Positions 48,365 through 49,492 of a DNA stretch of 64,000 nt are shown here, one piece after another. The notes below the pieces were generated by a model, which did no database searches, was not told where the DNA came from, and saw nothing but the letters and a program-made list of their open reading frames with translations. The position numbers were made by a program, and so were the translations under genes. The stretch is from Escherichia coli (GTDB taxonomy: Bacteria; Pseudomonadota; Gammaproteobacteria; Enterobacterales; Enterobacteriaceae). The stretch lies in assembly GCF_013122565.1 (NCBI RefSeq), contig NZ_CP053258.1. One strand, given 5' to 3'. How positions within the stretch are numbered: position 1 is the first letter of the stretch; each line of letters opens with the position of its first letter.

Positions 48365-49492
48365 TTAACGGAGTCTATAGCCTTCTTCTAGCACCGCCTG
48401 TGTTCGAACGAGTTCATCCGCGAGTCGTTTTTCATCAGGTAGTTGCATCTTATATTCACTCGCCAGAACGGTGTTAGGCAAACCAGCCAGTGCATAATGC
48501 GCTTCTCCGACTCCTTTCTCTGCACAGAGAACCAGACCGATGGGCGGATTTTCATCCGGTAGCGTCCAGTGCTCTTTGGCGTAGTTGAGATACATATTCA
48601 TCTGTCCGGCATCGCTATAGCTGAATTTGCCCACTTTTAGATCGACGATTAGCAGGCAGCGTAAACGGCGGTGGAAAAACAGCAGATCGACACGAAACCA
48701 GTTGTCATCAATGCGTAACCTTCGCTGCCGACCAACAAAGGCAAAATCATCCCCAAGTTCCAGCATGAAATCCATCAGGTGGTTGATCAGCGCCTCCTCA
48801 AAATCGGATTCTGAGTATTCATCTTTCAATTCCAGAAATTCGAGCACAAAGGGATCGCGTATCGCCTGTTGCGGAAGAATATGCGTCTCGGCAGGAGCGT
48901 GTTGTTGCAGCATGGCTGATTTGTCATGTGACAGCAGTGTTCGCTCATAAAATTGGGTCGCAATTTGCCGTTCTAGCTGGCGAACAGACCAGCCACAGCG
49001 GAGCGTCTCTTTTTCATAAAAGCTGCGGGCGTCAGCGTTTTTAACGGAAAGTAAACGGACGTAGGTGGACCAGGGCAGGGGGAAAGATTTGGCAGACAGC
49101 GTCTGCCAAATCTTTGCCGATGGGAATTCTGCAGATGGTGTCTGCGGAATTCCCAATGGTGTTAATTCGCCAGACACTGTCTGGCGAATTTCAACATGTT
49201 GAAAAAAGAGGTAAAAAAGCCTCATTTGGCGTAAGTTTTTTGCAGAGAACCCACGCTTATACCTTAGACTTAAATCCTTTGATAGTCGCTTGATTAGCTG
49301 CGCACCATACGCAGCCCTGGCCTCGCCACCTTGTTCAAATTCGACAATTCGTCGGCCAATTTCCCAGTATGTCGCGGTCATCAGCGCGTTAACGCTACGT
49401 ACCGTTTCCGTCCGGGCGCTATCGACCAGGTGAATAATACCGTCGTGGATTTGCTGGTAGCCTGTTGAGGTTCTCTCTGAGAGCGATTCCAT
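48365..49492 (-). CDS. yhcG: DUF1016-family protein YhcG (PD-(D/E)xK nuclease-like C-terminal region)
   Basis: 375-aa ORF; DUF1016-type blocks (YWEIGRRIVE, GWSVRQLERQI, FYERT) recalled from family members; contains an in-frame triplicated segment. Confidence 0.8.
   Translation of the reverse strand: MESLSERTSTGYQQIHDGIIHLVDSARTETVRSVNALMTATYWEIGRRIVEFEQGGEARAAYGAQLIKRLSKDLSLRYKRGFSAKNLRQMRLFYLFFQHVEIRQTVSGELTPLGIPQTPSAEFPSAKIWQTLSAKSFPLPWSTYVRLLSVKNADARSFYEKETLRCGWSVRQLERQIATQFYERTLLSHDKSAMLQQHAPAETHILPQQAIRDPFVLEFLELKDEYSESDFEEALINHLMDFMLELGDDFAFVGRQRRLRIDDNWFRVDLLFFHRRLRCLLIVDLKVGKFSYSDAGQMNMYLNYAKEHWTLPDENPPIGLVLCAEKGVGEAHYALAGLPNTVLASEYKMQLPDEKRLADELVRTQAVLEEGYRLR
49080..49196 (-). repeat. 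Three tandem 39-bp repeats inside the yhcG coding sequence, each with a palindromic core ((G)AATT-GCAGACA-nnn-TGTCTGC-AATT(C))
   Basis: Palindromes at 49086..49112, 49122..49154 and 49164..49190; centres at 49099, 49138 and 49177 (spacing exactly 39 bp = 13 codons); encode the protein repeats IRQTVSGELTPLG / IPQTPSAEFPSAK / IWQTLSAKSF.... Confidence 0.75.

Follow-up and report, generated by a model that had tools for sequence, protein, structure and literature searches.

The yhcG gene of Escherichia coli, studied here in a 64,000-nucleotide stretch of contig NZ_CP053258.1 (hereafter "the window"), contains three copies, in tandem and in frame, of an ancient DNA palindrome, which belongs to the DUF1016/YhcG protein family and not to E. 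coli, and of which a single unit is the ancestral state. The palindrome is found at the homologous position in every family locus that we fetched as DNA, from bacteria and archaea; its arms evolve by paired, Watson–Crick-preserving changes that rewrite the encoded peptide; and its unit number shifts through in-frame duplication and between-unit deletion, giving three-, two- and one-unit alleles within E. coli. It is thus a cis-element embedded in coding sequence, and one that is undescribed in the searchable literature on DUF1016, yhcG, the candidate defence family PDC-S02 and the core sequences (subscription-only papers lay outside our reach), and likewise in Rfam.

The palindromic tract of yhcG

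A repeat search gives three 27-nt copies (49086–49112, 49125–49151 and 49164–49190) spaced by 39 and 39 bp, and each copy is its own inverted repeat about the centre listed in Table 1. The earlier note on this DNA had described three palindromes in frame in yhcG with centres exactly 39 bp apart, and both the repeat search and the inverted-repeat arms bear it out. In the protein, the tract reads I102–G114 (IRQTVSGELTPLG), I115–K127 (IPQTPSAEFPSAK) and, from I128, IWQTLSAKSFPLPW (IWQTLSAKSF...). The units are 67–74% identical to one another, with arms that differ between units (CGC/GCG, CCG/CAG, TGG/CCA) and are complementary within each unit; because of this divergence Tandem Repeats Finder reports no repeat on the tract, and its silence is no argument against the repeats. 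Unit 2, the least regular, has 14-bp arms with one C·A mismatch and a weakened loop-closing pair, and its counterpart is the single perfect unit of Salmonella, ATTCCGCAGACACTGTCTGCGGAAT.

Folding of the tract, a check that the earlier note had proposed, gives −65.2 kcal/mol over 136 nt, compared with −30.2 ± 3.2 kcal/mol for dinucleotide shuffles (z = −10.9; 0/200 shuffles as good), and the individual hairpins have energies of −17.6, −14.7 and −12.8 kcal/mol with DNA parameters. Over the whole window there are 10 odd palindromes with arms of ≥10 bp, against 0–5 in Markov resamples, and 3 of the 10 are at yhcG; unit 2, having too many mismatches, is outside this count. A family copy outside the ORF (open reading frame) lies within the 59 bp that separate the stop of nanQ/yhcH (48305) from that of yhcG (48365), the two genes being convergent, and is retained in the O157 and 370-aa alleles described below. 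The alleles of this fourth copy (48337) differ solely in the central base (C/G), reading in the yhcG sense CAGACACTGTCTG in the window and O157 and CAGACAGTGTCTG in strain c1-17 (locus L002), which is a within-species loop flip.

Intrinsic terminators were rejected as an identity for the units: a T-run is missing after every one of them, and a terminator scan gives no score, the fourth copy included. The other long palindromes of the window (12187, 31111, 41055 and 63791; for example AAAACCGACGC...GCGTCGGTTTT) are like ordinary intrinsic terminators and unrelated to the yhcG family.

Table 1. Palindromes and coding sequence at the yhcG locus, in window coordinates.
Feature	Position	Strand	Description
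yhcG coding sequence	48365..49492	-	375 aa; DUF1016_N helical domain and PD-(D/E)XK nuclease domain; PADLOC PDC-S02 match
Three-unit tract	49080..49196	-	In-frame 39-bp units, residues 102-141; each unit a palindrome plus a 12-14-nt spacer; low-confidence loop
Unit 1 palindrome	49164..49190	.	AATTCGCCAGACA-N-TGTCTGGCGAATT; centre 49177; 13-bp perfect arms; encodes IRQTVSGE(L)
Unit 2 palindrome	49122..49154	.	GGGAATTC(C/T)GCAGA...TCTGC(A/G)GAATTCCC; centre 49138; imperfect; encodes IPQTPSAE(F)
Unit 3 palindrome	49080..49118	.	Centre 49099; 18-bp arms, 1 mismatch; core ATTTGGCAGAC-NNN-GTCTGCCAAAT; encodes IWQTLSAK
Fourth family copy	48325..48349	.	ATTCTGCAGACAGTGTCTGCAGAAT; 11-12-bp perfect arms; outside the ORF

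Conservation across the DUF1016 family

Using a 12-sequence alignment as query, we fetched 80 DUF1016 gene loci as DNA, at 45–67% identity, from Beta-, Gamma- and Deltaproteobacteria, Acidobacteria, Cyanobacteria, Verrucomicrobia, Planctomycetes, Bacteroidota, Ignavibacteria, Thermoleophilia and the archaeal Methanoperedens. All 80 carry one to four near-perfect odd palindromes of 19–33 bp at the homologous position (around codon 100), with arms of 8–18 bp, loops of 1–3 nt and the consensus ATTTnnCAGAC-RSY-GTCTGnnAAAT. Of 102 units, 100 are centred on the first base of a codon, and the density of palindromes is 6.6 per kb in the segment, compared with 0.13 per kb over the 333 kb that flank it. 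Minimal distant members have shorter palindromes with other cores at the same place and in the same phase, such as TTGTGGGACAGTGTCTCACAA on an archaeal contig, which encodes CGTVSHK, and GTGGCGCAGTGCGCCAC, which encodes CGAVRHE.

Unit number varies over the family as well as within E. coli. Enterobacterial orthologues have one unit, that of Salmonella being AAATTCCGCAGACACTGTCTGCGGAATCT, which encodes IPQTLSAES, and distant homologues have 0–4 motifs of the "QT.S" type bounded by the conserved NL..MR.FY and LSWSHY. Among 155 distinct homologous ORFs, 90 have one unit, 32 two, 10 three and 23 none, the last group most likely reflecting a limit of the location filter. Neighbouring units are most commonly 39 bp apart (20 cases), followed by 48 bp (11 cases), and the spacing is divisible by 3 in 51 of 52 cases. 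The in-frame amplification of a hairpin-forming unit that the earlier note had proposed therefore stands, given the single unit of Salmonella and a Pfam N-domain model about 29 residues shorter than its E. coli match; the accompanying statement that DUF1016 proteins have only one such segment does not hold in general, as the two- and three-unit ORFs demonstrate.

Many PDC-S02 profile hidden Markov models (HMMs) and 50%-cluster representatives (P0125–P0129 and others) end at about residue 100–113 of YhcG or start at about residue 122–150, which suggests split genes, frameshifts or assembly breaks at the palindrome tract. The tract accounts for broken gene calls and family models near residue 100–140.

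Copies found without reference to the gene

Viral contigs and metagenomes were also searched with a 25-nt pattern, ATTTNNCAGACNNNGTCTGNNAAAT, that makes no reference to any gene. Inside DUF1016 ORFs lie 8 of the 16 viral loci and 96 (79%) of the 121 metagenome matches retrieved; a further 3 of the latter have DUF1016 elsewhere in the locus and 22 are without it, several of these at contig ends. Matches outside DUF1016 ORFs are mostly intergenic. Extra copies occur upstream of DUF1016 starts, at a distance of 50–130 nt (L082, L014), about 230 nt (L203) or about 500 nt (L086), and a Thermoleophilia metagenome-assembled genome (L065, 100–320) has, about 1 kb upstream of the DUF1016 gene, five family palindromes arrayed in non-coding DNA with a period of 42–48 nt. 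In human-gut Firmicutes mobile DNA a 207-aa gene repeatedly has a copy about 180 nt downstream of it (L106, L120, L134, L127, L133, L122), beside hsdS–integrase fusions or an IS3-like ORF, and the homology between these contexts stops about 10 nt past the palindrome. E. coli has four copies in the 64 kb, all at yhcG, and one or two matching places per genome.

Before the DUF1016 start of L014 (2340–2480), the family palindrome and a second, unrelated hairpin lie between near-identical 19-bp direct repeats (ACATGAGGTGGA.C.ATGA), an arrangement that looks like an insertion with target duplication.

Nature of the constraint

The palindrome does not follow from the protein that it encodes. Synonymous recoding with each gene's own codon usage gives a mean longest arm of 5.9, compared with 11.9 observed, and the observed arm is reached by ≤1% of recodings in 58 of 62 loci; downstream control windows of equal length from the same genes give 5.95. 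The units are 50% GC inside genes that are 60% GC. Complementarity at third positions (684/711) was rejected as evidence, being circular for units already chosen as palindromes, and recoding of the whole segment and the free NN pairs of the gene-agnostic pattern were used instead. The view of the palindrome as the by-product of a protein repeat is thus reversed: the DNA palindrome is conserved family-wide, and the peptide follows.

Paired changes in the arms are seen most directly in an alignment of the first units of 58 genes, which was built on protein anchors rather than on palindrome calls. Here 94% of cells are paired, versus 18–46% with the partner slid; 8 of the 12 pairs have double changes; 98 cells are changed on both sides, versus 27 in shuffles (0/500 shuffles reach the observed value); and RNAalifold recovers the identical helix unaided. 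The outer ATTT/AAAT hardly varies, and nor does the GAC/GTC core. Around them the arm variants CAGAC/GTCTG, GAGAC/GTCTC, GAATC/GATTC, TCGAC/GTCGA and GCGAC/GTCGC encode I.QT.S[GA]K, ISETxSRK, ISESxIRK, ILSTVSRE and IHATLSRK, respectively, so that these paired changes in the DNA also change the peptide. In one clade with about 90% identity in the downstream protein, CAGAC and GAGAC cores differ between genes, usually in both units together, and one gene that is 98% identical to a GAGAC gene has a first unit of the CAGAC type and a hybrid second unit (L033).

The pairing is of the Watson–Crick kind and shows no preference for a strand. The inner eight pairs have 4 one-sided (G–U) cells versus 93 double changes; the two unspecified pairs of the gene-agnostic pattern are Watson–Crick in 233 of 256 cases, with four pair types, and G·T in 9 of 256; and the 53 mismatches on the sense strand include 9 G·T versus 16 A·C, with no excess of G·T. 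Loop triplets are equally frequent in both orientations (AGT 17 and ACT 14, ACC 10 and GGT 9, AGC 8 and GCT 8), and 82 of the 90 units have G or C as their centre base. A scan of 48300–49700 against Rfam at E ≤ 10 gives noise matches alone (E ≥ 0.35, far below gathering scores). At the variable arm positions it is, as the differing arms of the three E. coli units and the core differences within that clade indicate, the structure rather than the sequence that would be read out. Since the pairing is Watson–Crick, strand-symmetric and kept at synonymous cost, the selected object would be a DNA hairpin or cruciform, or a dyad-symmetric DNA site; the constraint most likely acts on DNA, through intrastrand pairing or through a dyad kept symmetric by conversion, and not on an RNA motif or a protein repeat.

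Alleles and rearrangements in E. coli

A match to yhcG is present in 4,464 of 5,426 complete E. coli genomes, and the alleles differ exactly at the tract. The intact three-unit tract, which K-12-type strains have, is found by a junction-specific search in 3,414 of the 5,426; a single exception apart, the 3,418 matching genomes have it at ≥95% identity. The O157:H7 allele encodes a 349-aa protein with one unit, the product of a 78-bp deletion whose junction occurs in 382/5,426 genomes, and the 370-aa allele (strain c1-17; 473/5,426 genomes) has two units at a 36-bp spacing, of which one has the arm variant GTG/CAC (IVQTLSAQ). One-unit junctions of at least five kinds are present among the protein clusters (IRQTVSGELTPLPW, IRQTASAKSF, IRQTVSGESF, IRQTVSAKSF and IRQTLSAKFS), and therefore the between-unit deletions are recurrent; the clusters also include one form with two units and another with three units that repeat every 12 aa. 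The repeat count, whose invariance would have spoken against amplification, is accordingly polymorphic.

The alleles track lineages such as O157:H7 and are stable within them, which makes this evolutionary length variation and not a fast switch. The length variability suggested by the earlier note thus holds over evolutionary time, but it is not that of a rapid contingency switch, given the stability within clonal lineages. A contingency locus of the phase-variable simple-repeat type was rejected on the same grounds, the alleles being lineage-bound and the units being 36–48 bp long and always in frame (51/52 spacings).

The edges of the palindromes double as breakpoints of larger rearrangements. 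In 724 genomes (BL21, O104:H4 and others), all sequence beyond unit 3's outer edge (about 49087), in the 3′ direction, is swapped for unrelated DNA; the replacement of the BL21 type is 464 bp long (L004 2030–2493, in place of window 48306–49086) and entails loss of the nuclease half and the downstream palindrome. An orphan 101-aa ORF in this replacement has no match in Pfam, NCBIfam or PADLOC. In strain P276M, an IS1 is found inside unit 3.

The YhcG protein and its surroundings

RefSeq names the ORF yhcG, with nanQ/yhcH and gltD as neighbours, and E. coli PapRG-04-4 has the same sequence (100% identity) over this part of the window. The product has both domains of the DUF1016/YhcG family (PF17761 and PF06250) in N-to-C order, with DUF1016_N at residues 19–184 (E = 1.1e-41) and YhcG_C at residues 208–360 (E = 2.9e-56). 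It matches profile PDLC04807 of PDC-S02, a candidate defence family of PADLOC, over residues 8–370 (E = 1.2e-135), as well as one PHROG whose function is unannotated. A sequence search of the PDB with YhcG gives no solved homologue. In a structure model the palindrome tract is a coil between well-predicted helices, with a pLDDT (predicted local distance difference test) score of 52–53 for residues 101–120, and the top structural matches to a model of the DUF1016 N-domain are the DNA-binding domains of ParB, Spo0J, KorB and SopB; the N-domain of YhcG is, judged from this model, possibly a DNA-binding domain like those of ParB and KorB. In a preprint, one PDC-S02 representative with a synthesized coding sequence was one of eight systems assayed, and it is outside the four that protected against T4, T5 or T7.

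Codon W141 (window 49070–49072) keeps in the window allele the tryptophan that is invariant in the 12-sequence family alignment, while arginine replaces it ("PLPRSTY") in the commonest E. coli allele (cluster P0001, with 4,131 members; also L003). From this substitution, K-12-type YhcG with arginine at W141 may be impaired.

Upstream, yhcG begins 183 bp past the gltD stop (window 49493–49675), and the gltF–yhcADEF block of K-12-type strains is absent, as it is from the O157 and c1-17 loci, whereas locus L003 has yhcF/yhcE beside yhcG. The small RNA G0-10703 was considered as related to the repeats and set aside as apparently unrelated; its reported overlap is with the 5′ untranslated region of the divergent yhcG mRNA (PMC7967276).

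Possible function and alternative explanations

In the reading that we favour, at a probability of about 0.4, YhcG itself would bind the palindrome, a hairpin or cruciform site that would act in cis for autoregulation or self-marking. YhcG is proposed as the binder since the gene's own product is the sole partner common to all bacterial and archaeal carriers. In such a scheme YhcG would be a nuclease of the NucS or Holliday-junction-resolvase type with a ParB/KorB-like helical N-domain, and the site would let this potentially toxic nuclease regulate its own expression or mark itself. Its placement inside the ORF would let site and protein be inherited together and stay linked through horizontal transfer, and the gain and loss of units and the breakpoints at palindrome edges would come from forks that stall, or cuts that are made, now and then at the extruded structure. 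A wider form of this reading is doubtful but conceivable: DUF1016/YhcG nucleases would carry their own recognised hairpin or cruciform in the ORF (an "operator-in-ORF"), horizontally transferred across bacteria and archaea, by which a structure-specific defence nuclease would be autoregulated or self-licensed, with multiplication, loss and cleavage driving allele diversity, which would be a new mechanism.

Several points weigh against recognition by YhcG. The functional step, whether binding, cleavage or an effect on expression, is inferred from sequence. A copy in the promoter region is missing from most genes, and an operator in the middle of an ORF would be an unusual mode of regulation. 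About one fifth of the pattern matches are neither in nor near a DUF1016 gene, so the palindrome is not exclusive to the family or has other partners. Palindromes of such length extrude as cruciforms only under high negative supercoiling. Template-switch conversion within the palindrome could also give perfect Watson–Crick symmetry, without any selection for structure. Finally, a defence role of the YhcG protein is a candidate role and unproven, the PDC-S02 representative not being among the four protective systems.

Action in the mRNA is an unlikely alternative to a DNA site. A hairpin there would cause a translational pause after the first three N-domain helices, be a processing site for RNase III or another enzyme, or act as a stability element, in each case tuning expression of a toxic nuclease; the very strong folding of the sense RNA (z = −10.9), the RNAalifold helix with its covariation, and the codon position and phase fixed in all members, as expected of an element acting on its own expression, are all in keeping with it. 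G–U pairs, however, are almost absent by either count (4 one-sided versus 93 double changes; 9 G·T among the 256 free pairs), the strand symmetry of the loops means that no particular RNA loop is selected, Rfam gives no match, and the copies that lie upstream of promoters or starts, or between genes in unrelated elements, fit poorly. A scarcely credible alternative is that a 12–13-residue I.QT.S.. motif is selected in the protein, the palindrome being incidental to its codons: QTxS is visible in the family consensus, and the units are in frame, with 51 of 52 spacings divisible by 3, but synonymous codings destroy the palindrome and are never used in nature, by which this explanation is largely refuted. 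The peptide, moreover, varies freely (Q/E, T/S, S/I, G/A/R) when both arms change together, the region is a low-confidence coil, and non-coding copies exist.

Double changes with so few G·T intermediates, loops that flip and are equally frequent in both orientations, and the hybrid intermediate unit of L033 are also what would be left by a functionless quasi-palindrome that perpetuates itself in a tolerant loop, with template-switch repair keeping the arms perfect and slippage multiplying or losing units. The loop is indeed disordered, the unit number does change recurrently, and template-switch correction of quasi-palindromes is reportedly established in E. coli, as at the thyA hotspot. We still regard neutrality as quite improbable, as it leaves unexplained the retention in 80 of 80 loci across bacteria and archaea against a 50-fold lower density in the flanking 333 kb, the AT-rich arms in GC-rich genomes, the near-invariant ATTT/AAAT and GAC/GTC, and the extra copies that lie outside the ORF and beside the gene. 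Of still lower probability is a site for recombination or mobility, at which crossover or cleavage would exchange gene halves between alleles, allow capture by mobile elements or move the DUF1016 gene itself. Mosaic E. coli alleles do switch at the tract, in 724 genomes the 3′ half gives way to other DNA precisely at the unit 3 edge, homology in gut Firmicutes stops about 10 nt beyond the palindrome, two L014 hairpins lie between 19-bp direct repeats, and DUF1016 genes are enriched beside invertible restriction-modification loci (PMC9881135) and on conjugative elements (PMC4316617). No recombinase or transposase is consistently adjacent to the genes, though, and most genes have a single internal copy with no flanking partner site. 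Hairpin-forming DNA gives rise to breakpoints through fork stalling or cutting by SbcCD, and the breakpoints may be a side effect of any such sequence.

The palindrome matters for several reasons. The DUF1016 family is uncharacterised and very large (24,553 cluster representatives at E ≤ 0.001) and widespread in defence islands and restriction-modification loci; it includes the "y-gene" yhcG of E. coli K-12, and the palindrome is the first concrete, testable handle on it. A DNA-level structural constraint that overrides protein sequence over deep time bears on models of coding sequence, on synonymous constraint and on gene synthesis. Codon-optimised DUF1016 genes, common in defence screens, would silently lose the palindrome.

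Comparison with known systems

Each of the nearest analogues departs from the yhcG palindrome in at least one defining feature. Among repeats associated with nuclease genes, REP/BIME elements and their RAYT proteins are similar in having palindromic units of 25–40 bp in small arrays, with copies clustering at a nuclease-type gene. REP units, however, are extragenic, number hundreds of copies per genome and have a species-specific consensus, and YhcG is a PD-(D/E)XK protein, not an HUH/Y1 one; we rejected this identity because the yhcG units are intragenic, with all four copies of the window at yhcG and one or two matching places per E. coli genome. ToxI of type III toxin–antitoxin systems likewise has tandem units of 36–39 nt with the nuclease gene of a defence-type locus, but these are non-palindromic and form non-coding RNA, upstream of the gene for an endoribonuclease. 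The yhcG units were therefore not assigned to this type, being translated and palindromic, under constraint at the DNA level and with a single unit as the ancestral state. Integron attC sites were rejected too, as imperfect palindromes of 57–141 bp with R''/L''-L'/R' boxes and extrahelical bases, located at cassette boundaries close to intI, compared with near-perfect palindromes of 19–33 bp with 1–3-nt loops inside an ORF.

Closer in their coding position are the Rickettsia palindromic elements (RPE), which are reportedly inserted in frame in protein-coding genes, so that hairpin-forming palindromic DNA is translated as a tolerated surface segment, as it is in yhcG. RPE are selfish elements of 100–150 bp spread over many unrelated genes of one genus, whereas the yhcG palindrome is 19–33 bp long and occupies one homologous codon position in one gene family across bacteria and archaea. 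An element of the RPE type was rejected, since 96 of the 121 gene-agnostic metagenome matches (79%) are in DUF1016 ORFs, in every case at the homologous position, and not in many unrelated genes.

In their mode of change, the yhcG arms resemble the quasi-palindrome template-switch hotspot of E. coli thyA and the hairpin-loop inversions of chloroplast spacers, with concerted arm changes that pass through no wobble intermediates and with flipped loops. Those are mutational phenomena of arbitrary sites, however, and predict no retention at a fixed position in a gene family across bacteria and archaea.

A further analogue is the operator type of ParB and KorB. In Bacillus subtilis, parS is said to lie inside spo0J, the gene of its ParB protein, and the OB site of KorB is TTTAGC(G/C)GCTAAA, an odd-length palindrome with a central G/C base, as in yhcG. 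In each of these systems a short palindromic site lies in or beside the gene of its binding protein, as is proposed for YhcG, and it is the DNA-binding domains of ParB, Spo0J, KorB and SopB that, in the predicted structure, best match the DUF1016 N-domain.

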